A stretch of DNA of 64,000 nt from Gemmatimonadota bacterium (GCA_033722155.1 JAWVZN010000002.1:17503-81502), one strand, 5' to 3'; shown: positions 26,643-60,157, counted from the first letter of the stretch. Notes: generated by a model from the sequence alone, not told the origin. Numbers and translations: made by a program.

Positions 26643-27227
26643 TCAGGTGGAGCAGTGGACGCACCGGAAGGTGGTCGGGAGCTCCTCGAGACGGTTCTTC
26701 GGGATCTTCCGGCCGCACGCCCGACACACCCCGTACTCGCGGGCGTCGATCAACTCGAGGGCCGTCCGGATTCGCTTCAGCTCGTCGGTCTCGCGCTCCT
26801 CGAGCCGGAGGAGGATGTCCCGGTCCTTCTCCTCCTGGGCGCGCTCCTCCAGTTCACGGCTGGTGCTCTCGTCGAGCTCGGCGAGCTCCTCCCGAAGCTC
26901 GTCGAGCCGCTGGCTCACCCGGACCCGTTCCTCCAGCAGCCGCTTGCGGAACCGCTCGTAGAAGGCGTCCCCCCGGTCGATCTTCTCCCGTTTCCCCGCC
27001 CCCTCTCCCCACGCGCCGTCGGGCTCGGTCTCCAGGGTGGGCTCCCGGGTCCCCGGAGGAGCGTCCTCGTTCGCTCCCGGCTCGCGCCGGGTGGTCTTCT
27101 CGCCCGCGCGTCCCGGGATCCGCTTCGCCTCCTCGTCCTCGATCTCGCGGGCGTCGCGCTCCACGCGCTCCCTCTTCTCCTCTTCCTCGTCCTCGCCACC
27201 GGCGCGATCGCGCCTCTCGTCCGCCAT
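26643..27227 (-). CDS. DksA/TraR-family C4 zinc-finger protein with a highly charged low-complexity N-terminal extension
   Basis: 194-aa ORF with the C-terminus …DAREYGVCRACGRKIPKNRLEELPTTFRCVHC; the N-terminal ~80 aa are rich in E/R/D. Confidence 0.7.
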   Translation of the reverse strand: MADERRDRAGGEDEEEEKRERVERDAREIEDEEAKRIPGRAGEKTTRREPGANEDAPPGTREPTLETEPDGAWGEGAGKREKIDRGDAFYERFRKRLLEERVRVSQRLDELREELAELDESTSRELEERAQEEKDRDILLRLEERETDELKRIRTALELIDAREYGVCRACGRKIPKNRLEELPTTFRCVHCST

Positions 27228-27300
27228 GAGACCTCCCTCGCTCTAGGATTCCGGTCCTGGATGATAGCCGACCGTCCCCGCCCCGGGCAACCGGGGACGC

Positions 27301-31908: not shown

Positions 31909-34900
31909 CTACGGGATAACCAGGGCGCGGACGGAGCGCGTCTCCCCGCCGGCGACGAGCCGGATCACGTACACCCCCGGCGGAACCGGCACGCCCCGTT
32001 CGTCGCGGCCGTCCCAGCTCACCGCCTGCTCACCGCTCACCGTGCCCCCCGCCCGCAATTCGCGGACCCGTCGGCCGAGCACGTCGTAGACGGCGAGGTC
32101 GATCTGGACGGCGTCCTCTGCCGGCCCGGGATCGGGGACCGAGAAGCGGATCGTCGTCGATTGGCCGAGCCGGATGGGGTTCGGGAAGTTCTGCTCGAGC
32201 ACGAGCTCCCCCCCGGGCGCCGGCGGCTCCGGGGGCTCGGTCCCGAGGACCCGGCGGAAGTAGGCGTCGCGCGCCGCGATGGCCGCCTGCTGGAGCGCCT
32301 CCAGGTTCTCCCCCGCCACCAGGGCGACGGCCACCGTGTCGGTCGCCCCCGCCTCGATCGAGATCGGTCCCACCCCGATCACCTGCCACAGATCCTGGGG
32401 CTGGCCCACGCTCGTGTTCGTCTGTCCGCTCGCGAGGGCGTCCCACTTCTCGGCGTCGGAGAACTCCCCGCCGAAGGGATCGGGCGCCTCGGCCCGCTCC
32501 GGGGCGCGGTCGGCCAGCGGGTCGCCGAGTTCGCTCTCGAGGACCTCCTCGCGCCGCAGGACCGCGTAGGTGATCTGCCCCAGCGAGACGTCGTCGAGCC
32601 ACACGACCCCCAGAACCGGCTGGCCCGCTCGGGGGCCCTCTACGAACCCGAGCCGGTGTACGGGATCCCACCCCGCGATCTCGGAGGGCTCTCCGTCGGC
32701 CCCCGGCAAATCCCAGTCCGCGAACAGGCCGAGCCGCGCCCCCTCGATCGGGCGCTCGGCGGTGTTGGCCACGGCGTACTGGAGGAGTACGAACGCGTCC
32801 TCTCCGGATTCCCCGAAGGCGAAGGACTCCTGGCGGACCCGCAGACCCAGCGGCTCGATCTTCTTTCGGTCGTCGTAGCCCGTGGTGATCCGCTGGCCGC
32901 CGGCCGCCTGGTCGATGGCGATCGGGAAACCGAACAGGGGGATCCAGTCGGAGGCGTTCTGGGTGTCCTCGCCGTAGGGGATGTCGTCCGAGACCCGCTC
33001 GCGACCGGTCCCGGCCATGAAGCTCGCGTGGAAGAGCCAGTTCGGGCTGTCCGGCGGGAAGCGGAAACCATCCCCCCGCAGGGTGAAGCCGCCCTGATGG
33101 AGGCCGGTGTAGTAGCCGAGCCCGCCGAAGTTGTTGACCGAGAGCCGGACTCGGCCCCGGTCGTGGGTGGCGAAGCCGCCGGGGATCGGCTCGCCCGCCT
33201 TCAGCACCAGCGGGAACGGTCCGATCGCGGCTCCGTCGACCACCATCTCCAGGCGTACCGGCGAGCCGGGCGGGATGCCGGGATCGAGCCGGATCTCGAA
33301 GGCGTCCCCGTCGGCCGGGCCGAAGAACTCCCCCGTCCCCGCCGCGGCGAGATCCACGGTCGCCCGGCTCACGGTGACGCCGGGGGTGGGACTGGAGAGC
33401 GTGGCCGTGGACGGGCCGATCGCGGGCCCGTGGTTGGTGAGGCGGGGGACGATCGCGTGGGATCCGCCGGGCCGGATCACCAGGGTTTCCTCGGGCTGGG
33501 CGGGGACGAGCTTGCCCGCGGGCGCGTCGGCCGGACGGAAGCCGACCAGCCGGGCGAACGGCTCGCTCGGGCGGTCGACCCGGGCCACGGCCGCCGCGGC
33601 GTCGACCAGGCCGTGGCCGCTCCGGTTGTCGTCGCCCGCCGCGCCCAGATCGCGCGCGGTCTCCAGCACGATCGCCTTCGCCCTCTCCGGGGTGATCCTC
33701 GGATCCTTGGACCGCATCAGAGCGAACACCCCGCCAACCATCGGCGTAGCGAAGGAGGTGCCGGTCAGCAGGGTGAATTCGTTGAAGCGGTTCCGGGTGG
33801 TGACGGAGAGGCCGGGGGCGACCACCTCCGGCTTCGTGGCGTGCGGGCCGCCGCACTGCGAGGGCCCCTGCCCGCTGCTCGTCAACACCTGGTTCTGGCC
33901 GTCGACGGCGCCCACCGCGAAGGCGTTCACGGGCGAGTCGGCCCGGTTGGCGGGCGAGGTGACGCCCCGCCCGCCCTCGTTGCCGGCCGACCACACCACG
34001 ATCGCCCCCGCCGCCTCCAACGCATCGATGGCCTCGTCGAAGATCGGGTCGCACCGGATCCGGTTGCTCGCGGGATCCACGTCGGTGAGACCGTACGAGT
34101 TGCTCACGACGTCGGGGACGTCCGTGGCCGTCGAGGGATCCCCGTCGGGGTCCGCGAGCCACTGGAGGGTCTTGAGGGCGTTGGATACGAAGCCCTCGTC
34201 GTCCTGGAACACGTCGCCGGCGATCCAGGTCGACTCGAAGGCCACGCCGAAGCTTCGTTCCCCGCCGGTCATCACTCCCATCGACGCGGTTCCGTGGCCG
34301 TTGGAGAGGGCGGTGTCGTCGTCCTTCGGGAAGACCGTGAGTGCGATCGGGGCGTACCAGGAGGCGTCGCTGCCCGCGAAGCGTCCCCGCCAGCGATCCC
34401 CGAGCGTATCGTCCTCTCCGTTCACGCCGGTGTCGGTGTTGGCAACGATCGCGCCCTGGCCGAAGATCCCCCGCTCCCACACCTCGGCGACTCCGATCCG
34501 GACCAGCTCCTCGACCGGGGCCCGGCCTGCGTGCACCGCCCGTCCGTCCGGGCCCGCAGCCGCTCTCCCGAGCGCCAGCCGGCGGTCCTCCACCACCCGG
34601 GCGATCGCGGGGTGCGCCTCCAGCGCCCCGATCCGGGCCGGATCCACCATGGCGACCACCGCGTTCACAAGCCACAACCGGTCGAGCTCCTCGAAGGCGC
34701 CCTCCGCGCGAGCCGCCGAGAGGGGGGCGCGCGCCGCCACGAGCGACGTCTCGTGGATCGATCGGAGGTCGCGCACGAGCCGCTCGTGGCGGAGCTCCAG
34801 GGTCGGCGCCGAGATCGCCCGGGCCAAGGCCTGCTCCCGCGACGGGTGGTCGGTGAGGCGGACGATCACCCGGACTCGATCCCCGTCCGTCGGGAGGGGC

Positions 34901-34968
34901 GTGTCCATCGCCGACGCCGTTCCCAACGCGAGAAGCCCCGCGAGCGCGAGCGTCCCCCCGCGCCTCAC
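31909..34968 (-). CDS. Secreted S8-family subtilisin-like serine protease with a T9SS-type (Por) C-terminal sorting domain, 1019 aa
   Basis: ORF with a signal peptide (MRRGGTLALAGLLALGTASA) and the S8 catalytic triad (…ANTDTGVN… Asp, …NGHGTASMG… His, …GTSFATPMV… Ser). The C-terminal ~90 aa read LEQNFPNPIRLGQSTTIRF…LAVYDVLGRRVRELR…WDGRDERGVPVPPGVYVIRL…. The GTG start overlaps the upstream TGA (GTGA). Confidence 0.85.
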   Translation of the reverse strand: MRRGGTLALAGLLALGTASAMDTPLPTDGDRVRVIVRLTDHPSREQALARAISAPTLELRHERLVRDLRSIHETSLVAARAPLSAARAEGAFEELDRLWLVNAVVAMVDPARIGALEAHPAIARVVEDRRLALGRAAAGPDGRAVHAGRAPVEELVRIGVAEVWERGIFGQGAIVANTDTGVNGEDDTLGDRWRGRFAGSDASWYAPIALTVFPKDDDTALSNGHGTASMGVMTGGERSFGVAFESTWIAGDVFQDDEGFVSNALKTLQWLADPDGDPSTATDVPDVVSNSYGLTDVDPASNRIRCDPIFDEAIDALEAAGAIVVWSAGNEGGRGVTSPANRADSPVNAFAVGAVDGQNQVLTSSGQGPSQCGGPHATKPEVVAPGLSVTTRNRFNEFTLLTGTSFATPMVGGVFALMRSKDPRITPERAKAIVLETARDLGAAGDDNRSGHGLVDAAAAVARVDRPSEPFARLVGFRPADAPAGKLVPAQPEETLVIRPGGSHAIVPRLTNHGPAIGPSTATLSSPTPGVTVSRATVDLAAAGTGEFFGPADGDAFEIRLDPGIPPGSPVRLEMVVDGAAIGPFPLVLKAGEPIPGGFATHDRGRVRLSVNNFGGLGYYTGLHQGGFTLRGDGFRFPPDSPNWLFHASFMAGTGRERVSDDIPYGEDTQNASDWIPLFGFPIAIDQAAGGQRITTGYDDRKKIEPLGLRVRQESFAFGESGEDAFVLLQYAVANTAERPIEGARLGLFADWDLPGADGEPSEIAGWDPVHRLGFVEGPRAGQPVLGVVWLDDVSLGQITYAVLRREEVLESELGDPLADRAPERAEAPDPFGGEFSDAEKWDALASGQTNTSVGQPQDLWQVIGVGPISIEAGATDTVAVALVAGENLEALQQAAIAARDAYFRRVLGTEPPEPPAPGGELVLEQNFPNPIRLGQSTTIRFSVPDPGPAEDAVQIDLAVYDVLGRRVRELRAGGTVSGEQAVSWDGRDERGVPVPPGVYVIRLVAGGETRSVRALVIP

Positions 34969-35762
34969 AGCAGCTCCAGCTGGATGTCGGAGTAGCCGCC
35001 GGCGACGATCCGGCGGAGGCTGGCGAGACCGGTCTCGATCGGCATCTCGATCACCTTGAGCGCGTCCGGGGCGTACCGGAAGATCGCTTCGAAGGTCGCG
35101 CGCCAGTCGACCGCCCCTTCACCGATCGGGAGGTGCTCGTCGGAGAAGCCGTCGGTGTCGTGCAGATGGATCTCACGAACCGCCTCCCCGAGCGCCGGCC
35201 ACCACGCGTCGGGTTCGACCGAGCCGTAGATGTGGGTGTGGGCGACGTCGAGGGTGAAGCCGACGTGGCGGGCGTCGAGCTGGTCGCGGAGATCGAGCAG
35301 GATCCCGGGGTTCGGCTCGAACATGTTCTCCAGCAGGATCGTCACCCCCGCGTCGGAGGCGAGGTCCACCATCCGTTCCCACACCTCCAGCGAGAGGGCG
35401 AGCCATCCCGGGAAGGCCGACGCCGGCAACAACGGCAGGTAGCCGGTGTGAAACGTCATCTGGCGAGCGCCCAGCGCTCCACCGACCCCGATGGCCCGCT
35501 CCCAGCAGCGACGGGTGTGTTTGCGGATCACCGCGTCGAGGCTGCCGGGATTGAGGTCGAAGATCGGGGCGTGGACGGAGACCTCGATTCCCCGCTCCGC
35601 GAGCTGGTCGCCGAGCCGGCGGATCGCGGTCGTCCGCTCCAGGTTCAGCAGCCACTCGGTGTCGTAGAGCGCGACCTCGATTCCCACGTCTTCCTCCGCC
35701 AGCACGTCGATGTGCCGGCCGACTTCCGGGAACGACGTGCTGAGCGCGAACCGCTTGGCCAA
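34965..35762 (-). CDS. Sugar phosphate isomerase/epimerase (xylose-isomerase-like TIM barrel)
   Basis: 265-aa ORF: …ILLENMFEPNPG…LDVAHTHIYG…IHLHDTDGFSDEHLPIGEGAVDW…. Confidence 0.75.
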   Translation of the reverse strand: MAKRFALSTSFPEVGRHIDVLAEEDVGIEVALYDTEWLLNLERTTAIRRLGDQLAERGIEVSVHAPIFDLNPGSLDAVIRKHTRRCWERAIGVGGALGARQMTFHTGYLPLLPASAFPGWLALSLEVWERMVDLASDAGVTILLENMFEPNPGILLDLRDQLDARHVGFTLDVAHTHIYGSVEPDAWWPALGEAVREIHLHDTDGFSDEHLPIGEGAVDWRATFEAIFRYAPDALKVIEMPIETGLASLRRIVAGGYSDIQLELL

Positions 35763-35870
35763 CTCGCCTGCCTCGAGGTCGCCGCGGCCGTCCGGAGCCG
35801 CGAGATGGAGAGGGTCGGGGATCTGAACTCGTGATGACCGGCCGGCAATTTACGGTTCGGAGAACGGGCG

Positions 35871-36674
35871 TCAAACACGATCCAGCGCGTCCCTCAACTC
35901 GGCGATCCACTCCGCGGCGGCCTCGGGGCCCTCCCGGTCGAGCCGCTCGACGTAGGCGGTCCCCACCACGATTCCGTCCCCGATCAGGGCGGCTCGCCGA
36001 GCGGAGTCGGCGTCGCCGATCCCGAAGCCCACCACGATCGGGAGCGCCGTTTCTTCCCGCAGCACCTCCACCTGCTCCGCGAGCCGTTCGTCCGCTCCCG
36101 CTCCCTCCCCGGTCACCCCGGTACGGGCGATCAGATAGACGAACCCCTCGGAGAGGCGGGCCAGGACGCGAAGGCGCTCCGTCGGCGTGGTGGGGGCGGC
36201 CAGCCGGATCAGCGGCAACCCCCGGGCGGCGAAACGGGCGGAGACCTCCGCCCCTTCGTCGAACGGCAGATCGGCGATCAGTACGCCGGCGAAGCCGGCG
36301 TCGGCGCACTCGGCGGCGGCCCGGTCGACGCCGCGGGCCCAGAGGGGGTTGAGGTAGGTGAAGAGCACCAGCGGCGGGCGGGTGTTCACGGCGTAGGCGG
36401 CGCAGATCTCCAGGGCGTCCTCCAGCGTGACGCCTCCCGCGATCGCCCGCTGGCTGGCGGCTGCGATCACCGGGCCGTCCGCGAGAGGGTCCGAGAAGGG
36501 GATCCCGAGCTCGACGGCGTCGGCGCCGGCCTCCGCCAGGGCCTCGAGGGCCGGAAGCGTCGTGTCCCGGTCGGGGAACCCGGCGGTGAGGTACGGGATC
36601 AGCAGTTTCCGGCCGGCGTCCCGTGCCTCGGCCAGGCGGGCGCCCATCGGGCTCGGATCCACCATCGCGCTCAT
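35871..36674 (-). CDS. trpA: Tryptophan synthase alpha chain
   Basis: Trimmed from ORF 35871..37406 to MSAMVDPSPMGARLAEARDAGRKLLIPYLTAGFPD…AVELGIPFSDPLADGPVI…VGFGI…. The ATG at 36672-36674 overlaps the upstream TGA (ATGA). An alternative start is M10 at 36647. Confidence 0.9.
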   Translation of the reverse strand: MSAMVDPSPMGARLAEARDAGRKLLIPYLTAGFPDRDTTLPALEALAEAGADAVELGIPFSDPLADGPVIAAASQRAIAGGVTLEDALEICAAYAVNTRPPLVLFTYLNPLWARGVDRAAAECADAGFAGVLIADLPFDEGAEVSARFAARGLPLIRLAAPTTPTERLRVLARLSEGFVYLIARTGVTGEGAGADERLAEQVEVLREETALPIVVGFGIGDADSARRAALIGDGIVVGTAYVERLDREGPEAAAEWIAELRDALDRV

Positions 36675-38101
36675 TCCGGGAGGAAGTGGCGGCCGACGTC
36701 GATCCCGTAGCGACCGGGATCCAGCACCTTGATGATCGTCCGGACGTACTCCCCGCCCCGGTCCCGCTCGGCGAGATCCACCACGGGCCCCTCGATACGG
36801 TTCCCCTGGTGGTCGGCGATCAGCCTGGCGTGCGGCCTGTCGAGCCGGTCGGGACCCGGGCTCCGAGCCGTCACCACGGCCAGCTCCAGGGTGTCGAGCA
36901 GCGCCAGGGTGCCCGGCGGGTACACGCCGAGCATGCTCACGAACGCCTTCAGCAGCACCGGATCGTAGCGGGTTCCCGACCACTTCATCATCGCCTCGAT
37001 CATCTCGGGCGGGCTGATGGGATCGGTCTTGTATACCCGGGGCGTGGTCCCCGCGTCGAAGGTGTCGCAGATGGCGACGATCCTGCTGAAGAACGTCAGC
37101 TTCCTCGGCGCGAACAGCTCCGGATAGCCCGACAGGTCCACGTTGAGGTGGTGCTCGAAGGCGACCAGCATCTCCCGCAGGGGAATCCGCCCGGTCGGCC
37201 GGCGCTCGATCAGGTGGTGGACCCCGTAGCGCACGTGGTTCTGCATCTCCTCCCACTCCTCGTGCTCGAGCGAGCCCGCCTTCTTCAGGATCTCCAGGGG
37301 CACGTCCACCTTGCCGATGTCGTGCATCAGCGCGCACAGGCCGAGATCGTACAGCTCGAAGCGCGAGAGCCCGATCCGTTGTCCCAGCGAGATCGAGAAG
37401 ACGCACACGTTCACCGAGTGGGTGAACGTCGGTTCGTCGTAGTCACGGAGATTCGTCAGCCCGACCAGCAGCGTCTCGTCGTCGAGCACCTGATCCACGA
37501 TCGACTGCACCGCCCGCTTGACCTGGTCGGTGCGGACGGCCCGCCCCGCACGAAGGCTCTCCATGAAATCGCGGGTCACCGCCACCCCGTGCCGGTAGGT
37601 GCGCTCGGCCCGCGCCCGGGCGTCGGGGTCCTCGACGAGGGTCTCCGTCGTCTCCTCGCGCAGCGGGAGCACCCGCACGCCCTCCACTCCCGCCTCCCCC
37701 AGTCGTCGAGCGGTTCGCTCCACCGAGCCCGCGTCCCCTCCCTCGAGACGCCCCACGACGTAGGCGAACCGGGCCGTCTCGTCGGGATCGAGCGGTCGAG
37801 TCCACTCGAACCCGCCCACCTCCAGAGATTGGAAGAATCGGAGCAGGTTCTGGTGGACGGTGTAATGGCGCAGCTCGCTGCGGACGCGCGAGCCGTTCAC
37901 GAGCACCGTATCCTGGCCCGTCTCGAGGCGGGCCCATCCGTCGATCTGCCACAGCTCCGAGAGGGTCCGGGAGAGCCGCTCGGCGGAGGCGCGGAGGGTG
38001 TCGTTGCCCGGCTCGTACAGCTGGCCCGAGCGAAACGCGACCAGGAGGTTCTGGACCAGCTCGCGGCCGAGCGCCAGAAGCGGCTGGGACACCTCCATCA
38101 T
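36671..38101 (-). CDS. HD-GYP domain phosphodiesterase (c-di-GMP family) with an uncharacterized ~200-aa N-terminal domain, 476 aa
   Basis: Trimmed from ORF 36671..39376 to [30 protein letters not shown]…. It has the HD motif …CALMHDIGKVDVP… and the GYP motif …HHLNVDLSGYPE…. The ATG overlaps the upstream TGA (ATGA). Confidence 0.85.
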   Translation of the reverse strand: MMEVSQPLLALGRELVQNLLVAFRSGQLYEPGNDTLRASAERLSRTLSELWQIDGWARLETGQDTVLVNGSRVRSELRHYTVHQNLLRFFQSLEVGGFEWTRPLDPDETARFAYVVGRLEGGDAGSVERTARRLGEAGVEGVRVLPLREETTETLVEDPDARARAERTYRHGVAVTRDFMESLRAGRAVRTDQVKRAVQSIVDQVLDDETLLVGLTNLRDYDEPTFTHSVNVCVFSISLGQRIGLSRFELYDLGLCALMHDIGKVDVPLEILKKAGSLEHEEWEEMQNHVRYGVHHLIERRPTGRIPLREMLVAFEHHLNVDLSGYPELFAPRKLTFFSRIVAICDTFDAGTTPRVYKTDPISPPEMIEAMMKWSGTRYDPVLLKAFVSMLGVYPPGTLALLDTLELAVVTARSPGPDRLDRPHARLIADHQGNRIEGPVVDLAERDRGGEYVRTIIKVLDPGRYGIDVGRHFLPE

Positions 38102-39768
38102 CGGCCTCCCGTGGCGGCGCTCCCGTCCCACGATCCGAGGACCTGGCGAGCGGTCCGGCGGACCAGCGCGTGCTTGTGCTCGGTCGCCTCCTCGACCGCC
38201 TCGTGGGCCTCCTCCGTGCCGGTGGCGCCGAGCCCCACGACGACACACGCCAGCTCCTCCGGATCGGCGCTCCGGAACAGGCCGCTGCGGCGCTCCAGCC
38301 GCTTGATCAGGTCCTTCACCACCCGTTCTCCACCGAGCGCCCCGTACGCCTCGAAGACGAGCCGCTGCTCGGTCGGAGGACGCTCGCGCCATCCGTCGCT
38401 CTCCACGATCTCGGAGATCCGGGGCAGAGCCGGCGCGTAGCGATGCGCTACCAGATGGCGCAGGGCGTAGAGGCGGACCGTCGGATCGGGATCGTCCACC
38501 GTCCCCGCCACGACCTGGAGGGAGCGTCCGCCCCCGAACTGCTTGAGGGCCTGGAGGGCGTCGCGGCGCACTTCGGCGTCGGAGGAGTCGAGGCAGCGCG
38601 CCAGGCCGTCGATCAGCCGGGGGTCGCCGAGATGGCCGGCGAGCCAGGCCGCCGCGGAGGCGAGCCGGGGATCGTCGCTCCCGAGCGCCTCCGACAGCTC
38701 GTCTATGCGCTCGCGCCCCAGCTCGGCCAGCGCCCCGGCGATGGCGGAGTGCTGAAACAGCTTCTTCAGGTCCCCGACGAGGGCGAGCAGCCGGATCGGG
38801 TCCTCGCGCCCGAAGGTCCGGTAGTAGCCGGCCGCGACCTGCTCCTCGACCGAACCCGATTCCACGGCGTCGGCCAGCCGGCCGAGCACCGGCTCGGAGA
38901 GGGCGGCCTCGCGCATCCGGGCGAAGGCGATCCGTCCCCGCTCTCCGCACCCATCGCTCTCGAGGTACGGGACGAACAGCTGGTGGAGCTTCCGGATCTC
39001 GTCCCAGGAGCCCTCGTCGAGGAGGCGCTCCTGCATCTCCGCCAGGGCCTCCAGCAGGGGGATGGGTTCCTGCCGCACCGGGTGGATCAGCAGCTCCCGG
39101 AGGCAGGTGAGCCCCTCGTGGAGGAGCCCCCGGCTCCGCTCGGCCTCCAGCTCCGCCTGGAGGGAGGCCATGTCCTCGTCGTCGAGGAAATAGAGGGTCC
39201 CGTCGAAATCGGACACGGGGCCCCTCGGGTCCTCGGCCGCGGCCCGATCCTCCGGATCCAGCTCGATCCGTCCCTTGTCCTCGTGCTCGTCCCGCTCCGC
39301 GGACGGCGGCACCCACTCCGCGTCCTTCAGGTCCTCGACGAAGGTGTAGCGGAGGTGGGTGAAGCTCTCCTGCCACAACCTCCCGATCAGGCCCTCATCG
39401 CGCTCCTCCTCCGTCTCCCGGGCGGATCGCGCGAGATGGTCGAGGAAGGCGGCGAGCTCGGAGCGAGCGAGTCCGGTGTAGAAGATCACCTTGCGGACAC
39501 CCTCCCGGTGGAGGGAGCGGGGAAGCGACTCCCTTCCCTCCTGGCGGTAGACCACCGTGTCGTCGACCGCTAGCGCGTCCTCCTCGACCTCGAGCTCGAT
39601 GGTCCCGTGGAGGTCGAGGAGGCTCCCGATCCTCCCGGTCGCCCGCTCCTCGATGTCCCGCCGCTCGGGGTGATCCGCGTCGTAGAGCCGACGCGCCTTG
39701 AACGCACGGACGAGCTCCTGCACCAGCTCGGAGGCGGACTCCGCGTAGTCGGTGCGCTCGGGGCTCAT
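38098..39768 (-). CDS. HEAT-repeat (PBS-lyase-like) protein whose N-terminal domain is homologous to that of the adjacent HD-GYP protein, 556 aa
   Basis: Trimmed from ORF 38098..40728 to [38 protein letters not shown]…. HEAT repeats occur, for example …[31 protein letters not shown]…. A strong SD, GGAGGGAGGAGG, lies immediately upstream of the ATG, which overlaps the trpB TGA (ATGA). Confidence 0.75.
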
Positions 39769-40955
39769 CCTCCTCCCTCCCTCTCGCGCCGGGCCACCGC
39801 CTCCACGTCCTTGTCGCCGCGCCCCGAGAGGCAGACGAGCACCCGGGAATCCGCCTCGATCGGGCACCCGTCCCGCCGCAGGAAGGCGATCGCGTGGGCG
39901 CTCTCCAGGGCGGGGATGATGCCCTCCAGCTCGCCGAGCAGATGGAAGGCGTCGAGGGCCTCGTCGTCGGTGACCGCGTCGTAGGCGACCCGTCCCCGCT
40001 CCTTCAGCTCCGAGTGCTCCGGTCCCACCCCGGGATAGTCCAGCCCGGCGGAGACGGAGTGGGCGCCCAGGACCTGACCGTCGCCGTCCTGCAGGAGATA
40101 GCTCAGGGCTCCGTGGAGAACCCCGGGGCGGCCCTTCGAGAGGGTCGCCGCGTGGCGTCCGTCGAGCCCCTCTCCGGCGGCCTCCACGCCGTACAGCTCG
40201 ACCGGGTCGTCGAGAAAGGCGTGGAACACCCCGATCGCGTTCGACCCGCCGCCGACGCACGCCACGATCGCGTCGGGCAGCTCCCCCCACCGCTCCCGGC
40301 ACTGGCTCCGGGCCTCCCGCCCGATCACCGCCTGCAGCTCGCGCACGATCAGGGGGTAGGGGTGGGGTCCGACCACGGAGCCGATCACGTAGTGGGTGGT
40401 GTCCACGTTCGTCACCCAGTCGCGGATGGCGGCGTTGGTGGCGTCCTTCAAGGTTCTCGTCCCGTCGTCGACCGCCACGACCTCGGCTCCCAGCAGCTCC
40501 ATCCGGTACACGTTGAGGGCCTGCCGGCGGGTGTCCTCGCGGCCCATGTAGACGACGCAGTCGAGCCCGAAGCGCGCGCACGCGGTGGCGGTGGCGACCC
40601 CGTGCTGTCCGGCGCCCGTCTCGGCGATGATCCTCCGCTTCCCCATCCGCAGCGCGAGCAGCACCTGTCCGAGGGTGTTGTTGATCTTGTGGGCCCCGGT
40701 GTGGTTGAGGTCCTCGCGCTTGAGCCACACCCCGTAACCGGTCTCCCGGGAGAGGCGGGGCGCCTCGGTGAGCGGGGAGGGTCGGCCGACGTAGTCGGCG
40801 AGGAGCGCGTCGAGGCTCGAGCGGTAGGCCGGATCGCGGGCCGCCTGCTGCCAGGCGCTCTCGAGCTCGTCGAGGGCGGCGATCACCGTCTCGGGCACGA
40901 AGCGGCCGCCGAAGGCGCCGAAATACCCCCTGGGGGTCGTCCCGGGGCGGCTCAT
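39765..40955 (-). CDS. trpB: Tryptophan synthase beta chain
   Basis: Trimmed from ORF 39765..41582 to [23 protein letters not shown]…[11 protein letters not shown]…. The ATG overlaps the trpF TGA (ATGA). Confidence 0.95.
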
Positions 40956-41608
40956 CGTGACGGCCCCGGCTTCCGGGCGACCTCGCGGGCGGCCCGCACG
41001 AAGGCGCGGATCTTCGCCGGGTCCTTCCTGCCGGGAGCGTCCTCGAGACGGCTGGACGCGTCGACCCCGTCGGGCGCTACGACCTCGATCGCGCGGCGCA
41101 CGTTCCCCGGCCCCAGCCCGCCCGCCAGGACGAGCGGTACCGTTCGCCGTGCCGGGGGCCACCGCGTGGCCAGTCGCTCCCACGGCAGGGTGTCCCCGGT
41201 GCCCCCCCGACCTGCCTCGCCGGCGTCGAGAAGGACGGCGTCGGCCGCCGACTCCCACGGCTCCAGCCGGGCGGAGCCGCCGCTCCAGGGGACGGCCTTC
41301 CACACCGGCCGGCCGGTGGCGCGCCGCGCCTCCCGGCACAGCTCGGGGCTCTCGGCGCCGTGGAGCTGGAGCGCCGCCAGATCGAGGTCGGCGGCGAGGC
41401 GCTCGAGCTCGGCGATCCGCGGGTCCACGAACACCCCCACCCACGACGCCTCCACGTCGCCGACCAGGCGCGCGGCCTGCCCGGGCGTGACCCGACGGAC
41501 CGACGGGGCGAAGACGAGCCCCAGGTAATCGGCTCCCGCCTCGACTGCGGCTCGCGCGGACGCGGGATCGGAGATCCCGCACACCTTCACGCGAAGCTCC
41601 CCCGTCAC
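40952..41608 (-). CDS. trpF: Phosphoribosylanthranilate isomerase
   Basis: C-terminal part of ORF 40952..42505. [33 protein letters not shown]…. GTG start overlaps the trpC TGA (GTGA). Confidence 0.85.
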
Positions 41609-42432
41609 GGGCCCGAGCCCCCCGCTTCCACCAGGGCGGCCAGAGCCGCCCCGGGCCGGGGGGATCGCATCAGGTGCTCCCCCACGAGCACGGCGTCCGC
41701 ACCGGCGTCGCGCGCCCGAGCGACGTCCTCCGGCCCGCTCACGCCGCTCTCCGCGACGAGGATGACCGAGTCCCCGAGTCGCTCCCGCAACCCGGCCACC
41801 GTGGCCAGGCCTCGGGGAAGGGACACCTCCAGGCTCCGCAGGTCGCGGGCGTTCACCCCGATCACCTCGGGATCGATCGCCGTCGCCCGATCGGCCTCCT
41901 CCTCCGCGTGGATCTCCACCAGCAGGCCCAGACCGGCCTCCTCCGCCGCGGCGGCGATCGCCTCGAGGGCTGCATCGTCGACCGCGGCCACGATCAGGAG
42001 CGCGGCGTCGGCCCCGGCGGCGCGGCTCTCCCACACCTGCCACGGATCCACGAGGAAGTCCTTTCGAAGGACCGGCACCGCGGCCGCCGGCGCGACCGCC
42101 TCCAGGTCCGCCAGCGCCCCGTCGAACGCGGCGTCCGTGAGGACGCTGACGGCGGCGGCTCCCCGCTCGGAGTAGAGGCGGGCCCGGGCGGCGACGTCCA
42201 CTTCCACGGCCAGGTCGCCCGCCGACGGGCTTCGCCGCTTGATCTCGGCGATGACCGCGGTGCCCGGCCCGCGCAGCGCTTCCGCCCACGGTCGCGCCGG
42301 CGAGCGCTCGGCCGCCTCCCCCCGGAGCTCGGCCACGGAACGGGCCCCTCTCTCCCGCCTCACCGCGGTACGCTTCCGGCGCACCGCCTCGGCGAGAAAC
42401 CGGGATTTGACTTTCGGCGTATCTTCGGTCAT
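41605..42432 (-). CDS. trpC: Indole-3-glycerol phosphate synthase
   Basis: ORF 41605..42486 trimmed to the ATG at 42430-42432: [21 protein letters not shown]…[15 protein letters not shown]…. Confidence 0.85.
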
Positions 42433-42504
42433 CTTGGCGTTCGTTGGAGGCCGGTGTGCGCGTCGGCCCGAGCGGTGGAGTCGCATCCAGACATGGGCGG
42501 GACA

Positions 42505-43110
42505 ATGAATCTAACCAAGCGCCAGCGTGAAATCTACGACTACATCAAGTCCTTCCTCGAGGAGCGGGGATATGCGCCCAGCCTGGAGGAGATCGGGGCT
42601 CACTTCGGCCTCTCCTCGGTCGCCACGGTGCACGAGCACCTGGCGAACCTGGAGGCGAAGGGCGTGCTGCGGCGCGATCCGAACCGCAGCCGGGCCGTCG
42701 AGCTCACCCGTCCGGGCCTCACCGACGCGGTCGAGCTGCCGCTGCTCGGGCGAGTCGCCGCCGGCGAGCCGCTCGAAGCGATCGCCGACAACGAGACGAT
42801 CGCGGTGCCCGAGGAGATGCTCGGCCGCGGCGAGACCTTCGCCCTCCGGGTGAGCGGGGACTCGATGATCGACGAGCACGTGGCCGACGGAGACTATCTC
42901 ATCGTGGAGCGGCGGGAGACGGCCCGGGACGGCGAGCGCGTGATCGCCCTGATCGACGGAGAGCGGGCGACCTTCAAGACCTTCCGCACCGAGGGCGACG
43001 GCCGGATCCGGCTGCAGCCCGCCAACGACCGGCACGCGCCGCAGGTGTACGAGGCGGACCGGGTGCGGGTCCAGGGCGTCGCGATCGGGGTGCTGCGGAA
43101 GTACCGCTGA
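42505..43110 (+). CDS. lexA: LexA repressor (S24 peptidase)
   Basis: C-terminal part of + ORF 41674..43110: MNLTKRQREIYDYIKSFLEERGYAPSLEEIG… (wHTH) and …LRVSGDSMID… (catalytic Ser). An alternative ATG lies at 42493. Confidence 0.9.
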   Translation: MNLTKRQREIYDYIKSFLEERGYAPSLEEIGAHFGLSSVATVHEHLANLEAKGVLRRDPNRSRAVELTRPGLTDAVELPLLGRVAAGEPLEAIADNETIAVPEEMLGRGETFALRVSGDSMIDEHVADGDYLIVERRETARDGERVIALIDGERATFKTFRTEGDGRIRLQPANDRHAPQVYEADRVRVQGVAIGVLRKYR

Positions 43111-43136
43111 CAGGCCGAGACGTTTTCGACAACCCG

Positions 43137-44198
43137 CTAGGACGCCTCCCGCGAGAGTTGCCGGGAAAGGTCCACGAGCGCCTTCAGGGTCTCCACGGCC
43201 GCCCCCGACGCGATCGTCTCCCGGGCTCTCTCCACCCCTTCGCGAAGGCCGTCCGCCACTCCGGCCACGAACAGGGCGGCGCCCGCATTGGCGGCGGTGA
43301 TCGCCTCCTGTGCCGCGGTCCCCTTCCCCGCCAGCACCGACGCCAGGATCCGCGCGTTCTCCGCCGGATCGCCTCCGGCGAGCTGCTCGGGATCGTGTGG
43401 CTCGATGCCCAGGTCGCCCGGCTCCACCACGTCGGTCGTCACCGCGTCCTGCCGCACGCTCGCCACGATGGTGGGGCCGGAAACCGAGATCTCGTCGAGC
43501 CCCTCGCGGCCGTGCACCACCAGCGCGTGCTCGCTTCCGAGCTCGTGGAGGACGCCGGCCATCAGCTCCACCACGTCGGGCCCCGGGACCCCGATCACCT
43601 GCCGGGTGGCGCCGGCGGGATTGGTGAGGGGGCCCAGCAGGTTGAACACCGTCCGGATCGCGATCTCGCGCCGGGCCCCGATCGCGTGACGCATCGCGGG
43701 GTGGAACCGGGGCGCGAAGAGGAAGCCGATCCCGATCTCGTCGATGCAGCGCCCCACCCCCTCGGGCGGCAGGTCGATGGCGACCCCCAGCGACTCGAGC
43801 ACGTCGGCCGAGCCCGAGCGGGAGGAGGCCGCCCGGTTGCCGTGCTTGGCGACGGCGACCCCGGCCGCTGCGGTGACGAAGGCGGCCGTCGTGGAGATGT
43901 TGAAGGTGCCGGAGAAGTCGCCACCGGTCCCGCAGGTGTCGACCAGGGGGGCGCGCTCGGTCTCGACTCTCTGTGCGCGGGAGCGCATGACACGGGCGGC
44001 CCCGGCGATCTCCCCGGGGGTCTCCCCCTTCGTGCGGAGCGCCGCCAAAAGCGCCGCGATCATGATCGCGGTCGTCTCCCCGTCCATGACGGTGGCGAAC
44101 AACGCCTCCGACTCCGCGGCGGTGAGATCGCGCCCCTCCGTCAGCGTGCGAAGGCACGTCCGGGGATCGCCCTCCGCCCGCCGGGCGGCCGGGCTCAC
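43137..44198 (-). CDS. trpD: Anthranilate phosphoribosyltransferase
   Basis: In ORF 43137..45950. VSPAARRAEGDPRTCLRTL…DTCGTGGDFSGTFNISTTAAFV…. GTG start overlaps the transporter TGA (GTGA). Confidence 0.9.
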   Translation of the reverse strand: MSPAARRAEGDPRTCLRTLTEGRDLTAAESEALFATVMDGETTAIMIAALLAALRTKGETPGEIAGAARVMRSRAQRVETERAPLVDTCGTGGDFSGTFNISTTAAFVTAAAGVAVAKHGNRAASSRSGSADVLESLGVAIDLPPEGVGRCIDEIGIGFLFAPRFHPAMRHAIGARREIAIRTVFNLLGPLTNPAGATRQVIGVPGPDVVELMAGVLHELGSEHALVVHGREGLDEISVSGPTIVASVRQDAVTTDVVEPGDLGIEPHDPEQLAGGDPAENARILASVLAGKGTAAQEAITAANAGAALFVAGVADGLREGVERARETIASGAAVETLKALVDLSRQLSREAS

Positions 44199-45487
44199 TC
44201 CTTCGCTTCGCTCGTCCAAACCGGCTCTTCCCCCCCGGCGACGATCGGGGGGTGCGCGGCGAGCTCTCCCTCGGTGGCCGCCACCACGACGGCGCAGGAG
44301 GAGTCGCCGGTGATGTTCAAGGCGGTGCGGCACATGTCGAGGATTCGATCCACGCCGAGGATCAGGGCGATCCCCTCGAGGGGGATGCCGACGGTCTTGA
44401 GGACCAGCGCCAGGGTGATCATGCCGACCCCGGGAACGCCCGCCGCGCCGATCGAGGCGAGAGTGGCGGTGAGCACCACCATCAGCTGCTGCTCGATCCC
44501 GAGCTGGAGGCCGTACACCTGGGCGATGAATATCGTGGCCACGCCCTGGTACAGGGCGGTGCCGTCCATGTTGATCGTCGCCCCGAGCGGGAGCACGAAC
44601 GCGCTCACCTCCTCGCTCACCCCCAGGTTCTCCTCGCACGACTCCATCGTCACCGGGAGCGTGGCGTTCGACGACGAGGTGCTGAAGGCCACGAGCTGCG
44701 CGGGCGCGATCCCTTTGAAGAACGGAACCGGGCTCATTCCGCTGAACAGCTTCACCGCAGCCGGGTAGACGAGGACGCCGTGCACGACGAGGCCCACGAT
44801 CACCACCACCGAGTAGACGACCAGCGTCTTCAGGATCCCCAGGCCGTACTCCCCGATGATCGCCGCGATCAGCGCGAAGACGCCGTACGGGGCGAGCTTC
44901 ATCACCAGGTGGACGAGCTCGATCATGGCGTCGTTGACGGTGTCCATGAAGGAGATCACCGGCTCGGCCTTGGAGCGCTCCAGGTAGGTGAGGGCGATGC
45001 CGAAGACGAGGGCGAAGAAGATCACCTGGAGCATCGTGGCCTCGGCGAGCGCCTCGATCGGGTTCGTGGGGATGATCTCGAGCAGGGTGTCGACCATCGA
45101 GGGCGCCTCTGTGGCCTGCTGGACGTTCACCTCCGCGGCCCCCGCGAAATCCTCGAGGAGCCGATCCTTCACGTCGCCGGCCAGCCGCGCGCCGGGCTTC
45201 ACCAGGTTCGCCAGGGTGAGCCCGATCGTGATGGCGATCGAGGTGGTGACCAGGTAGTACGTCACGGTCTTGAGCCCGATCCGGCCGAGCTTGACCAGGT
45301 CTCCCAGGCTCGCCACCCCCACCAGGATGGAGGCGAAGACGAGGGGCACGACGATCATCGTGATGAGCCGGATGAACGCGTCCCCGATCGGCTTGATGAC
45401 GGCGATCCCGGGCCCGACGAGCAGTCCGGCCACCGCGCCGAGGACGAGTCCGAGCAGGATCTGGGTGTGGAGGGGGATCCGCTTCAC
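44195..45487 (-). CDS. Dicarboxylate/amino acid:cation symporter (DAACS family, GltP/DctA/SstT-like)
   Basis: 430-aa ORF with a GTG start: MKRIPLHTQILLGLVLGAVAG…GTALYQGVATIFIAQ…; it has multiple TM segments. Confidence 0.85.
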   Translation of the reverse strand: MKRIPLHTQILLGLVLGAVAGLLVGPGIAVIKPIGDAFIRLITMIVVPLVFASILVGVASLGDLVKLGRIGLKTVTYYLVTTSIAITIGLTLANLVKPGARLAGDVKDRLLEDFAGAAEVNVQQATEAPSMVDTLLEIIPTNPIEALAEATMLQVIFFALVFGIALTYLERSKAEPVISFMDTVNDAMIELVHLVMKLAPYGVFALIAAIIGEYGLGILKTLVVYSVVVIVGLVVHGVLVYPAAVKLFSGMSPVPFFKGIAPAQLVAFSTSSSNATLPVTMESCEENLGVSEEVSAFVLPLGATINMDGTALYQGVATIFIAQVYGLQLGIEQQLMVVLTATLASIGAAGVPGVGMITLALVLKTVGIPLEGIALILGVDRILDMCRTALNITGDSSCAVVVAATEGELAAHPPIVAGGEEPVWTSEAKE

Positions 45488-45624
45488 GGGCGGCGAACGT
45501 AGCCGGGCGGTGTCGAGCGGGCAACCGCGATTCCCCCGCCGGAGGGACCTCCGAGAGGCATTGCCCGGCCCCCGCGGAAGACGATATCTTTCCGGGAACG
45601 TCGACCCCTCGATCCTTCCAGCCG

Positions 45625-46392
45625 GTGAATCGAATCAAGGCCGTTCTCGAGTACGACGGAACCGCGTATCGCGGGTGGCAGCGCCAGCCGGACGCCACCA
45701 CCGTGCAGGGAACCTGCGAGCGCGCGATCGCGAAGGTCGTGGGAGACCCCGTCGACGTGGTCGCCTCCGGCCGTACGGACTCCGGGGTCCACGCCCGGGG
45801 GCAGACGGTCCACGTGGACGTGGACGCCGGGATCGATCCACCCGACCTGCGGCGAGCCTGGAACGCGTACCTCCCCGACGACGTGTGGGTGCGGGAGCTC
45901 GCTCCCGCCCCGAGCGGCTTCCACGCCCGCCACGACGCACGCGCCCGCACCTACCGCTACTACGTGGCCCACGGGCCACGGGCCCGCTCCCCGTTCGTCT
46001 CCCGCTATCACTGGTCGCTGGATCGTCCGGTCGACTGGGACCGGATCGAGCGCGCCACCGGCCGGCTGACGGGAACCCACGACTTCCGGCGCTTCGCGAA
46101 GGGTTCGAAGCGCGCGAGACGTCGCGCCGGCCGCCCGCCGGGCCGCTGCACGGTGGCCGGGGCCGCCTGGCGTTCCGTTCCGGCCGGACGGATGCTGGAG
46201 ATCACCGCGGACCGGTACCTTCGCCACATGGTTCGCGCCCTGGTCGGAACCCTGATCGACATCGGCCGGGACCGGGTGACGATCGCCGAGCTGGAGCGGG
46301 CGCTCGAGCCCGGCGGCGAGCGGCCGAGTGCGGGCTACGCGCCACCCCGGGGCCTGTTCCTGTGGCGGGTGGAGTACGCGGATGACGCGTAG
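45625..46392 (+). CDS. truA: tRNA pseudouridine(38-40) synthase
   Basis: 255-aa ORF (GTG start): MNRIKAVLEYDGTAYRGWQRQP…SGRTDSGVHARGQ…. Confidence 0.9.
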   Translation: MNRIKAVLEYDGTAYRGWQRQPDATTVQGTCERAIAKVVGDPVDVVASGRTDSGVHARGQTVHVDVDAGIDPPDLRRAWNAYLPDDVWVRELAPAPSGFHARHDARARTYRYYVAHGPRARSPFVSRYHWSLDRPVDWDRIERATGRLTGTHDFRRFAKGSKRARRRAGRPPGRCTVAGAAWRSVPAGRMLEITADRYLRHMVRALVGTLIDIGRDRVTIAELERALEPGGERPSAGYAPPRGLFLWRVEYADDA

Positions 46393-54266: not shown

Positions 54267-55634
54267 TCAAGCCGGAAGGGGCCGCAGGGTCGCGGTGAAG
54301 TGGCGCAGCACCGGAGCGGTGTCGACGATCTCCATACCGCCGATCTCCTCGCGCCGCTCGAGCACCCGCCGGCACGCCGCCACGACGTACCGCAGGTGGG
54401 CGTCGGTGTAGACCCTTCGGGGCAGCGCCAGGCGCACCAGCTCCAGGCGCGGGTGGCGCACCTCCCCCGTCTCGGAGTCGGGCGCGGCGAACATGAGGCT
54501 GCCGATCTCCACCCCCCGCACGCCTCCCTCCAGGTACAGCTCGCAGGCGAGCGCCTGCGCCGGGAACTCTTCCGGGGGCACGTGCGGGAGGAACCCGGCC
54601 GCGTCGAGGTAGATCGCGTGGCCGCCGGGGGGCTCGAGGATCGGCACGCCGGCGTCGCGCAACCCCTCCGCGAGTGACGCGACCTGCCCGACCCGGTACC
54701 GGAGGTACGCCGGCTCGAGCACCTCCTCCAACCCGCGGGCGATCGCCTCGAGGTCGCGCCCGGCCAGTCCGCCGTAGGTCGGGAAGCCCTCCACCAGGAC
54801 GAGCAGCCGGGTCACCCGCTCGGCCCACTCGTCGTCGTTCAGGGCGAGGAAGCCGCCGATGTTGACCAGGCCGTCCTTCTTGGCGCTCATCGTGCAGCCG
54901 TCGCCCAGGCCGAACATCTCCCGCGCGATCTCCCCCAGGTCGCGGCCTTCTTGCCCTTGCTCGCGCTCCCGCACGAACCACGCGTTCTCGGCGAACCGGC
55001 AGGCGTCGAAGAGGAGCGGGATGCCGTACCCCTCCAGCAGCCCGGCGACCGCCCGGGCGTTGGCGAGCGAGACGGGCTGGCCGCCCCCGGAGTTGTTGGT
55101 GATCGTGAGCATGCAGAAGGGAACGTTGTCGGGCCCCGCCTCCTCGATCGTCTCCCGCAGCCGGTCGAGGTCCATGTTCCCCTTGAAGGGATGGGGGTCG
55201 GCGGGGTCGTACGCCCGCTCGATCACACAGTCGACCGCGCGCCCCCCGTTGTTCTCGATGTTCGCCCGGGTGGTGTCGAAGTGGCTGTTGTTCGGGATCG
55301 TGTCGCCGGGCCCCACCACGCGCGAGAAGAGCAGGTTCTCGGCCACCCGTCCCTGGTGGGTCGGGATCACGTGCTCGTAGCCGAAGATCCCGCGGACGGC
55401 CTCCTCGAAGCGGTAGTAGTTGCGGCTGCCCGCGTACGACTCGTCGCCCAGCATGAGACCCGCCCACTGGACGTCGGACATCGCCGAGGTTCCGCTGTCG
55501 GTGAGCAGGTCGATCGTGACCGCGTCGCTCGGGAGGTTGAACAGGTTGTAGCCCGCCTTCTCGAGCGCGTCCCGGCGCTCGCGGCGCGTCGTCAACGGAA
55601 TCGCCTCCACCGCCTTGATCCGGAACGGCTCCAT
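54267..55634 (-). CDS. Beta-eliminating lyase (tryptophanase / tyrosine phenol-lyase family, PLP-dependent), 455 aa
   Basis: Trimmed from ORF 54267..56027 to MEPFRIKAVEAIPLTTRRERRDALEKAGYNLFNL…CTMSAKKDGLVNIGGFLA… (PLP lysine). Confidence 0.85.
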   Translation of the reverse strand: MEPFRIKAVEAIPLTTRRERRDALEKAGYNLFNLPSDAVTIDLLTDSGTSAMSDVQWAGLMLGDESYAGSRNYYRFEEAVRGIFGYEHVIPTHQGRVAENLLFSRVVGPGDTIPNNSHFDTTRANIENNGGRAVDCVIERAYDPADPHPFKGNMDLDRLRETIEEAGPDNVPFCMLTITNNSGGGQPVSLANARAVAGLLEGYGIPLLFDACRFAENAWFVREREQGQEGRDLGEIAREMFGLGDGCTMSAKKDGLVNIGGFLALNDDEWAERVTRLLVLVEGFPTYGGLAGRDLEAIARGLEEVLEPAYLRYRVGQVASLAEGLRDAGVPILEPPGGHAIYLDAAGFLPHVPPEEFPAQALACELYLEGGVRGVEIGSLMFAAPDSETGEVRHPRLELVRLALPRRVYTDAHLRYVVAACRRVLERREEIGGMEIVDTAPVLRHFTATLRPLPA

Positions 55635-55654
55635 CCCGAAGTCGGCAGGCTCGG

Positions 55655-59932: not shown

Positions 59933-60008
59933 TGGTGGGCCGCCCAGGAATCGAACCTGGAACCTACGGATTAAGAGTCCGTTGCTCTGCCAGTTGAGCT
60001 AGCGGCCC
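59933..60008 (-). tRNA. tRNA-Lys (anticodon CTT), CCA encoded
   Basis: Minus-strand sequence GGGCCGCTAGCTCAACTGGCAGAGCAACGGACTCTTAATCCGTAGGTTCCAGGTTCGATTCCTGGGCGGCCCACCA. It folds as a cloverleaf with a 7-nt anticodon loop CT-CTT-AA and a T-loop TTCGATT. Confidence 0.85.
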
Positions 60009-60014
60009 GGAACT

Positions 60015-60090
60015 TGGGGTGGGCGAGGGGATTCGAACCCCCGACTCCCAGGACCACAACCTGGTGCTCTACCGCTGAGCTACGCCCACC
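60015..60090 (-). tRNA. tRNA-His (anticodon GTG), G-1 and CCA encoded
   Basis: Minus-strand sequence GGTGGGCGTAGCTCAGCGGTAGAGCACCAGGTTGTGGTCCTGGGAGTCGGGGGTTCGAATCCCCTCGCCCACCCCA. The anticodon loop is TT-GTG-GT, and an extra 5' G(-1) is paired with the discriminator C. Confidence 0.85.
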
Positions 60091-60104
60091 GTGCGGAGGG
60101 ACGA

Positions 60105-60133: not shown

Positions 60134-60157
60134 TGGAGCCGAGGGCCGGCCGGCTCT

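Follow-up and report, generated by a model that had tools for sequence, protein, structure and literature searches.

A phylum-wide split tryptophan gene cluster in Gemmatimonadota that encloses lexA, with a predicted LexA operator at the start of trpC

When the gene for the SOS repressor LexA lies on the opposite strand in the middle of a set of tryptophan genes, is this the accident of a single genome, or an inherited arrangement in which LexA could govern its neighbours? We addressed this question for a cluster at positions 35871-45487 of a 64,000-nt stretch of DNA from a Gemmatimonadota bacterium (GCA_033722155.1, JAWVZN010000002.1:17503-81502), here called the window (W). The window has a G+C content of ~72%, and genes were hence called via third-position GC (GC3) and Pfam instead of the length of open reading frames (ORFs); gene models combine Pfam and NCBIfam scans with start-codon and GC3 analysis. 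The original prediction, made from this DNA alone, had described an atypical trp cluster with a DAACS transporter coupled to trpD, an antisense lexA in its middle and no trpE or trpG.

Read along the minus strand, the cluster starts with a gene for a DAACS/SDF cation symporter (44195-45487, 430 aa; Pfam SDF, 467 bits), followed by trpD for anthranilate phosphoribosyltransferase (43137-44198, 353 aa; TIGR01245, 428 bits). lexA (42505-43110, 201 aa) lies on the plus strand and converges on trpD. Beyond it, a six-gene unit resumes on the minus strand. Its first gene is trpC (indole-3-glycerol-phosphate synthase, 41605-42432, 275 aa; Pfam IGPS, 230 bits), followed by trpF (phosphoribosylanthranilate (PRA) isomerase, 40952-41608; Pfam PRAI) and trpB (TrpB1-like tryptophan synthase beta, 39765-40955, 396 aa; Pfam PALP), whose product is 70-79% identical to its relatives. 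Then come genes for a HEAT-repeat protein (38098-39768, 556 aa; Pfam HEAT_2) and an HD-GYP protein (36671-38101, 476 aa; recognized by HD-GYP motifs and fold matches), and the unit closes with trpA (tryptophan synthase alpha, 35871-36674, 267 aa; Pfam Trp_syntA, 249 bits). 4-nt start/stop overlaps occur at all six same-strand junctions: GTGA at DAACS/trpD, where the trpD GTG start lies over the DAACS TGA stop (GGAGTGAGC), and at trpC/trpF; ATGA at trpF/trpB, trpB/HEAT, HEAT/HD-GYP and HD-GYP/trpA. The convergent stops of trpD and lexA are separated by 26 nt (43111-43136), exactly as originally predicted, and the gene list and order of that prediction were correct as well. In relatives, the two ends abut or overlap (4-nt overlap in L001, 7-nt gap in L002; L numbers denote related loci retrieved for comparison). 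A consensus scan for promoters and terminators found no hairpin-plus-T-run terminator in the 26-nt spacer. The only terminator-like match (42388-42404) lies within trpC and abuts the lexA -35 element, and the tally of such matches was below shuffle expectation.

The embedded lexA is, judged by its sequence, intact. Its product scored 201 bits against TIGR00498 (cutoff 110.95) and matched both Pfam domains, the winged-helix LexA_DNA_bind (PF01726, 80 bits) and Peptidase_S24 (PF00717, 94 bits). The self-cleavage site VAAGEP (A86-G87) and the catalytic dyad, GDSM (S120) and TFK (K158), are present, and orthologues form more than 100 clusters at 73-100% identity. The antisense lexA of the original prediction is thus borne out, and the pseudogene that would have undone it was not found.

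To compare gene order, as the original prediction had proposed, we pooled 82 loci: a scan of a genome collection with TrpD gave two Gemmatimonadota metagenome-assembled genomes as closest matches, together with 78 loci of other phyla, and a metagenome scan with the HEAT alignment added 80 more loci. The conserved core reads trpD, convergent lexA, trpC to trpB, HEAT, HD-GYP, trpA, and it persists down to 27-30% HEAT identity. The full order including DAACS was found in L002, L164 and L167, and the order without DAACS in more than 40 further contigs. At 29% HEAT identity, L082 (a 4-Mb contig) and L083 still show truA (divergent), trpD, lexA (on the opposite strand), trpC, trpF, trpB, HEAT, HD-GYP and trpA. 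HD-GYP followed HEAT in all 72 informative loci of the 82; the gene before HEAT was trpB in 64 of 74 and lexA in 9 of 74, and trpA came after HD-GYP in 39 of 49. None of the 78 trpD loci from other phyla contained a lexA, HEAT or HD-GYP insert, all being plain trpD-C-(F)-B-A. Since the order recurs in independent Gemmatimonadota assemblies, it is neither a chance juxtaposition nor an assembly artefact. By this comparison of sequences, the arrangement is ancient and a hallmark of the phylum Gemmatimonadota.

The non-trp genes proved to be the more durable part. We designated loci with trp genes type I and those that lack them and retain lexA-HEAT-HD-GYP type II. At least ten loci read truA, lexA, HEAT, HD-GYP, with truA and lexA on one strand and HEAT and HD-GYP on the other; trpD, trpC-trpB and trpA are all gone. 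In a neighbour-joining HEAT tree, these trp-less loci occupy at least five separate positions, and remnants of trpB or trpF persist in L142, L128 and L165. The scattered positions and the remnants indicate that the trp genes were lost repeatedly, with lexA-HEAT-HD-GYP kept. Among loci with trp genes, many have no room for trpF (trpC-trpB gap below 250 nt in L089, L091, L095 and others), and the gene call at L082 8166-10004 is a 612-aa PRAI+PALP protein. In several lineages, trpF has thus been relocated, lost or fused.

We then turned to the DNA between lexA and trpC. Alignment of lexA upstream regions revealed a lexA promoter at 42407-42435 (+), with TTGACT as -35 (42407-42412), a 17-nt spacer and CATCTT as -10 (42430-42435). 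The alignment also uncovered a direct repeat, TTCGG-N6-TTCGG, which has an 11-bp period and in the window lies within that spacer (42413-42428, +; TTCGGCGTATCTTCGG). Exact copies stand upstream of lexA at 47 of 47 loci and at the 4 of 4 fetched later (51/51), and the copy at 42413-42428 is the sole exact match in the window. In 972 kb of Gemmatimonadota DNA, we counted 99 exact matches versus ~1.8 expected. All except one lie at the lexA-promoter position: 90 at a lexA promoter and 8 at the same position where the contig end cuts lexA off. The stray match (L155:4265) is inside the coding sequence of a GAF protein. Most lineages carry two tandem copies, one between a TTGnnn -35 and a TAnnnT -10 and the other directly after this -10; of these, the window's clade has the first only. 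The box is conserved equally at trp-less loci and so belongs to lexA, not to a trp regulator. We therefore predict TTCGG-N6-TTCGG to be the LexA operator of Gemmatimonadota. The literature that we searched contained no description of a LexA motif for this phylum, and a tblastn search of the PLSDB plasmids with LexA returned no Gemmatimonadota replicon. Within lexA itself, ~100 nt into the coding sequence, there is a copy with one mismatch (TTCGGCCTCTCCTCGG, 42604-42619, +), which could be due to chance or act as a weak secondary operator.

The predicted operator coincides with the start of trpC. In the window, the complement of the box encodes trpC codons 2-7, and the ATG of trpC shares bases with the lexA -10; the 72-nt interval between lexA and trpC is taken up by the lexA promoter and 5' untranslated region. 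Across 33 type I loci, trpC starts between the inside of the first box and at most 13 nt beyond it (median 8 nt), at a median of 59 nt from the lexA ATG. This leaves no space for an independent trpC promoter: a polymerase that transcribes trpC must start on the predicted operator or cross it.

Our working model, which we hold to be probable with appreciable room for doubt, is that of an inherited, phylum-wide split trp cluster in which two trp units flank an autoregulated lexA and LexA represses both lexA and the second unit. Unit 1 would be a leaderless mRNA from the promoter TTGCCC-N17-TACGTT, carrying the GltPh-type symporter and trpD. Unit 2, trpC-trpF-trpB-HEAT-HD-GYP-trpA, would probably be one mRNA yielding six proteins by coupled translation. 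lexA would be read divergently from unit 2, with the predicted operator in its promoter spacer, and LexA bound there would co-repress lexA and unit 2, setting a LexA-buffered basal level. Upon DNA damage, LexA cleavage would raise the expression of the tryptophan-synthesis genes and of HD-GYP. We infer from motif specificity and operator position that the box binds LexA and that unit 2 is under its control. Tentatively, one may go further and suppose that LexA directly gates tryptophan synthesis and the HEAT/HD-GYP phosphodiesterase through this shared compact control region, the box being an undescribed LexA motif of the phylum that converges on alphaproteobacterial architecture; we regard this as possible rather than probable.

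Several points weigh against LexA control of unit 2. The box marks lexA promoters only, within 972 kb of DNA that offered no second SOS gene (recA, uvrA or imuAB/dnaE2) for comparison. The window's clade yielded no convincing trpC promoter. Some lineages (L141, L148 and L122) have a trp-strand TAnnnT -10 overlapping that of lexA; others (L092, L107, L083 and L109) do not. Repression of tryptophan synthesis by LexA is also physiologically odd. In one sub-clade, a promoter-like element inside trpB appears to drive HEAT-HD-GYP apart from the lexA region, which means that co-regulation with lexA is not universal. Finally, deletions alone suffice to leave lexA beside HEAT-HD-GYP in trp-less lineages, without any selection for linkage.

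Two promoter candidates met in this connection deserve a separate description. A symmetric bidirectional promoter with overlapping -10 elements was considered for lexA and trpC; it fits L141, L148 and L122, fails in the four loci named above (L092, L107, L083, L109), is not clear in the window, and is kept as a possibility only. The element of the sub-clade arises where the trpB codons for H-Y-I-I read CAC TAT ATT ATC, AT-rich in a 70% GC genome, and give GTCAC-N18-TATATT. Carriers with trp genes are L089:5457, L092, L095, L097:2588, L117:9047 and L132:769, and trp-less carriers are L094:9870, L118:2406, L126:8466, L128:9869, L129:9843, L142:9483 and L162:5291. Where trpB has decayed in trp-less relatives, no other part of it is as well preserved as this fragment, which suggests that the element is an internal promoter of HEAT-HD-GYP; what had looked like a conserved promoter of trp-less loci proved to be this leftover of trpB. 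The window has CAC TAC GTG ATC at that place and lacks the element.

How else could the arrangement be explained? The layout of lexA (+) between trpD (-) and trpC (-) is that of a noncontiguous operon, and a single transcript could run from the DAACS/trpD promoter antisense across lexA into trpC and on to trpA. Expression of trp and lexA would then be antagonistic through polymerase collision and antisense pairing, with LexA at its operator acting as a roadblock. The trpD/lexA spacer without an intrinsic terminator, the abutting or overlapping ends in relatives, and the lack of a recognizable trpC promoter of its own within the 57-72-nt lexA-trpC interval all fit such read-through, for which Staphylococcus aureus offers a documented precedent (PMC11034616, PMC7154746). 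However, Rho-dependent termination could still separate the units, the trpD-lexA gap widens to ~200 nt in L083, and trp-less lineages keep HEAT-HD-GYP without the upstream trpD promoter (L166 without DAACS as well), so that a local promoter must serve there. We consider read-through rather unlikely. Alternatively, lexA and HEAT-HD-GYP might be neutral insertions ("morons") in an ancestral trpDCFBA that have since been inherited vertically; unit 2 would then have a LexA-independent promoter, and the operator overlap would be without regulatory effect. Inserts of unknown role do occur in the trp operons of Burkholderia and Flavobacterium, including between trpB and trpA (PMC2395257). The apparent use of an internal trpB promoter for HEAT-HD-GYP in one sub-clade points the same way, as does the adjacency after trp loss, which can be a by-product of deletion. 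Yet trpC starts at most 13 nt from the operator even at 27-30% HEAT identity, where other intergenic distances vary, and the six-gene chain of 4-nt overlaps has been maintained. Moreover, given the established effects of operator position, a repressor sitting at +5 to +20 would hardly leave transcription of the gene unaffected. A frozen accident thus seems improbable to us.

The explanation put forward in the original prediction starts from the first gene of the cluster: a symporter coupled to trpD would import anthranilate, serine or tryptophan and offset the absent trpE/trpG. The coupling geometry is real, since the GTGA overlap of DAACS and trpD exists and L002 (as CTGA) and L164 keep the junction at the same position; trpE/G are indeed not in the window. 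The protein itself argues for another substrate. Among solved structures, PDB 9bgz ('Aspartate transporter') comes closest (E 2e-124), with GltPh at ~1e-94. The substrate motifs SSSNATLP (271), NMDGT (306), GVPGVG (350) and DRILDMCRTALN (380) are kept, the last being the D-x3-R-T-x2-N signature of transmembrane segment 8 (TM8) with equivalents of GltPh D394, R397, T398 and N401. In GltPh structures, they contact aspartate through its amino group and its side-chain carboxylate. The residues expected of an Asp/Glu carrier are therefore in place, among them the arginine partner of that carboxylate. By fold and motifs, the protein belongs to the GltPh/GltP-type transporters of acidic amino acids, and NCBIfam ranks GltP first; the score for the E. 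coli GltP equivalog (NF008440, 319.5 bits versus a cutoff of 638) limits this to a family-level assignment. The serine/threonine transporter SstT scored far below its cutoff (NF010151, 125.7 bits, versus 308). We predict an Asp/Glu symporter of the GltPh type.

Transporter and trp genes also vary independently. DAACS was found solely in the window's clade (W, L002, L081, L164, L165 and L167), and trp-containing loci beyond this clade are all without it. Within the clade, DAACS accompanies trp genes in W, L002, L164 and L167, occurs without any trp gene in L081 and L165, and is missing from L001, which has trp genes; L166 has neither. Uptake of anthranilate, serine or tryptophan is thus unsupported by the binding residues and by this double dissociation: DAACS is missing at most trp-bearing Gemmatimonadota loci and kept at trp-less ones. 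Placement of trpE/G elsewhere in the genome is, besides, the commonest split trp organization (PMC2395257). We judge the importer explanation very improbable and return to our working model, in which the DAACS gene is best read, on its distribution, as a recent clade-specific insertion between truA and trpD that now uses the promoter of trpD and has no obligate link to tryptophan. The L001 spacer between truA and trpD (9820-10040) still matches the window's DAACS promoter over 21 nt and, exactly, the region of the DAACS start over 14 nt, and it has a short ORF with weak similarity to DAACS residues 233-263; together, these are a suggestive but weak sign that the gene was deleted there.

The predicted promoter of DAACS and trpD lies at 45496-45524 (-), with TTGCCC (45524-45519), a 17-nt spacer and TACGTT (45501-45496). 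W, L002 and L081 share TTGCnn-N17-TACGTT at 8-10 nt ahead of the DAACS start. In the window, it ends 8 nt before the GTG; the predicted mRNA is therefore leaderless or nearly so and could not accommodate a leader peptide or attenuator. An upstream ORF at 45485-45562 (-; 25 codons, MPLGGPSGGGIAVARSTPPGYVRRP), whose TGA overlaps the DAACS GTG, was rejected as a leader peptide because it has no Trp codons, its GC3 is low and neither L002 nor L081 conserves it; it is probably untranslated. At many loci without DAACS (L141, L140, L144, L158, L136 and L139), the trpD promoter has a perfect TTGACA -35, and an inverted repeat (CCCG-TTTTT-CGGG or close variants) is conserved between it and the -10. This repeat is missing from the window's clade and is a possible operator for some regulator.

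The genes that outlast trp loss encode a matched pair. The HEAT protein consists of a ~145-aa N-terminal alpha/beta domain, a helical middle and C-terminal HEAT repeats (AlphaFold2 (AF2) pLDDT 85), and the HD-GYP protein of an N-domain, the HD-GYP catalytic domain and a small C-terminal beta domain (AlphaFold pLDDT 80). Both models show the same ~145-residue N-terminal alpha/beta domain, and a sequence alignment places the two N-termini in register (32% identity, E 7e-5). Pfam gave only a sub-threshold DUF3391 trace for the shared domain, and Foldseek searches with the HEAT model returned only generic alpha-Rep/armadillo repeats. Fusion of the N-domain to HEAT repeats is widespread (975 representative clusters; HEAT_2 in 35 of 40 sampled). 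The HEAT family comprises ~104 full-length homologues, and every named source is labelled Gemmatimonadota. In the HD-GYP family, all metal-ligand and GYP residues are invariant, and the window protein has the motifs, the metal-binding H/D/E residues and the fold of HD-GYP proteins, matching PmGH (4mcw), PA4781 (4r8z), Bd1817 (3tm8) and V-cGAP3 (5z7c) in sequence and fold. Most likely, HEAT and HD-GYP form a cyclic-di-GMP (c-di-GMP) phosphodiesterase module and would act together as a complex. As the pair is kept wherever trp was lost, its function is independent of tryptophan synthesis. This chained pair, together with the lexA promoter and operator over the trpC start, is more unusual than the points that the original prediction had stressed.

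Is the cluster nevertheless a trp operon in the usual sense? A canonical one would be trpEGDCFBA, contiguous and on one strand; here, the window has no trpE/G, lexA is antisense, and two genes separate trpB from trpA. A Pfam scan of every coding-like ORF in the 64-kb window gave no match to Chorismate_bind or class-I GATase (glutamine amidotransferase), the domains of TrpE and TrpG, in agreement with the original prediction. The units are bounded upstream by the divergent truA and downstream by a separate promoter after trpA, so that the lack of trpE/trpG is not an effect of the window's edge; the concern that these genes might lie just outside in the same operon is thereby answered. The search for a leader peptide, T-box or attenuator upstream of 45487 and 42432, which had been suggested, was also negative: no T-box, riboswitch or leader matched Rfam in the whole window at the gathering threshold or in 42300-45800 at E<=1, and no Trp-responsive leader (attenuator peptide, T-box or TRAP sites) was found at this cluster.

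The upstream boundary gene truA (tRNA pseudouridine synthase I, 45625-46392, +; Pfam PseudoU_synth_1) is divergent from the DAACS gene and is the same neighbour at nearly all related loci. Downstream, a sigma-70-like promoter (TTGACG-16-TAAATT, 35847-35874, -) at the end of trpA serves the next gene, which encodes a xylose-isomerase-like TIM barrel (34965-35762, -; Pfam AP_endonuc_2). The position of this gene after trpA is conserved across the window's clade, and it still adjoins HD-GYP in the trp-less L081, L165 and L166. The protein that it encodes resembles the cobamide-remodelling phosphodiesterase CbiR, but weakly and below threshold. A gene of the tryptophanase family (54267-55640, -; NF009709, 667 bits versus a cutoff of 285) is found ~9 kb away from the trp cluster; tyrosine phenol-lyase is the alternative assignment and scored below its own cutoff. 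By these gene calls, the genome encodes tryptophan synthesis and a Trp- or Tyr-degrading beta-eliminating lyase in close proximity. The window also contains two nucleotide-signalling genes without apparent link to the cluster, a CHASE2-sensor adenylate/guanylate cyclase (59975-62146, +) and a DksA-type zinc-finger gene (26643-27242, -). ARAGORN called a 92-nt tRNA-Ala(CGC) at 32968-33059 (+), antisense within a subtilase (S8) gene; it was not confirmed at the Rfam gathering threshold and is probably a false positive.

Taken together, the cluster is a genomic signature that defines a little-studied soil phylum, most of it uncultured, and TTCGG-N6-TTCGG is a concrete, testable candidate for its LexA-binding motif. 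The repeated loss of trp genes amounts to an unusually clean natural experiment on the tryptophan-independent function of HEAT/HD-GYP, and a tempting mis-annotation is corrected, in that the transporter is not a tryptophan-pathway importer. If the working model is true, the locus would be a rare case of an SOS repressor governing amino-acid biosynthesis and c-di-GMP turnover, would wire DNA damage to both Trp supply and second-messenger signalling, and would exemplify an operator that lies within the opening codons of a divergently read gene.

Known systems come close to several parts of the cluster. The predicted box resembles the alphaproteobacterial LexA box GTTC-N7-GTTC (cited in PMC4951493) in being a direct repeat instead of a palindrome, with a TTC core and 11-bp periodicity, and in overlapping the lexA core promoter; tandem boxes, present in most Gemmatimonadota lineages, occur at many lexA promoters. 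The Gemmatimonadota unit differs in being TTCGG with a variable base before TTC, the phylum is unrelated to the Alphaproteobacteria, the box is a prediction, and in the window it lies within the coding start of a divergent gene. The transporter shares full-length similarity with GltPh, GltTk and 9bgz (E 2e-124 to 1e-94), including hairpin 1 (HP1), NMDGT, hairpin 2 (HP2) and the TM8 substrate and ion-site motifs; E. coli GltP is set apart by the NCBIfam score (319 versus 638 bits). The HD-GYP protein has the fold and the conserved metal-ligand and GYP residues of known HD-GYP c-di-GMP phosphodiesterases, from which it differs by the ~145-aa N-domain shared with HEAT, the extra C-terminal beta domain and its location between trpB and trpA.

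For the gene order, two precedents are relevant. Like the S. aureus menE-menC-MW1733-ytkD noncontiguous operon or excludon (PMC11034616, PMC7154746), the cluster has an opposite-strand gene between co-directional genes and convergent ends without a terminator; unlike it, the embedded gene is a global repressor with its own predicted operator at the start of the downstream unit. Split trp operons without trpE/G are well documented, and so are trp operons with unrelated genes, which Burkholderia and Flavobacterium have even between trpB and trpA (PMC2395257, PMC6614838). Such operons (Xie et al. 2003, cited in Kagan et al.) likewise have trpE/G elsewhere, unrelated co-transcribed genes and truA as a recurrent neighbour. 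Compared with the operons described there, the HEAT and HD-GYP inserts form part of a chain of 4-nt overlaps, an antisense lexA splits trpD from trpC, the arrangement is phylum-wide, and the non-trp genes outlast trp loss. What is new in Gemmatimonadota is thus the identity of the inserts, the embedded opposite-strand repressor with a predicted operator on the trpC start, the conservation throughout the phylum and the persistence after the trp genes are gone.

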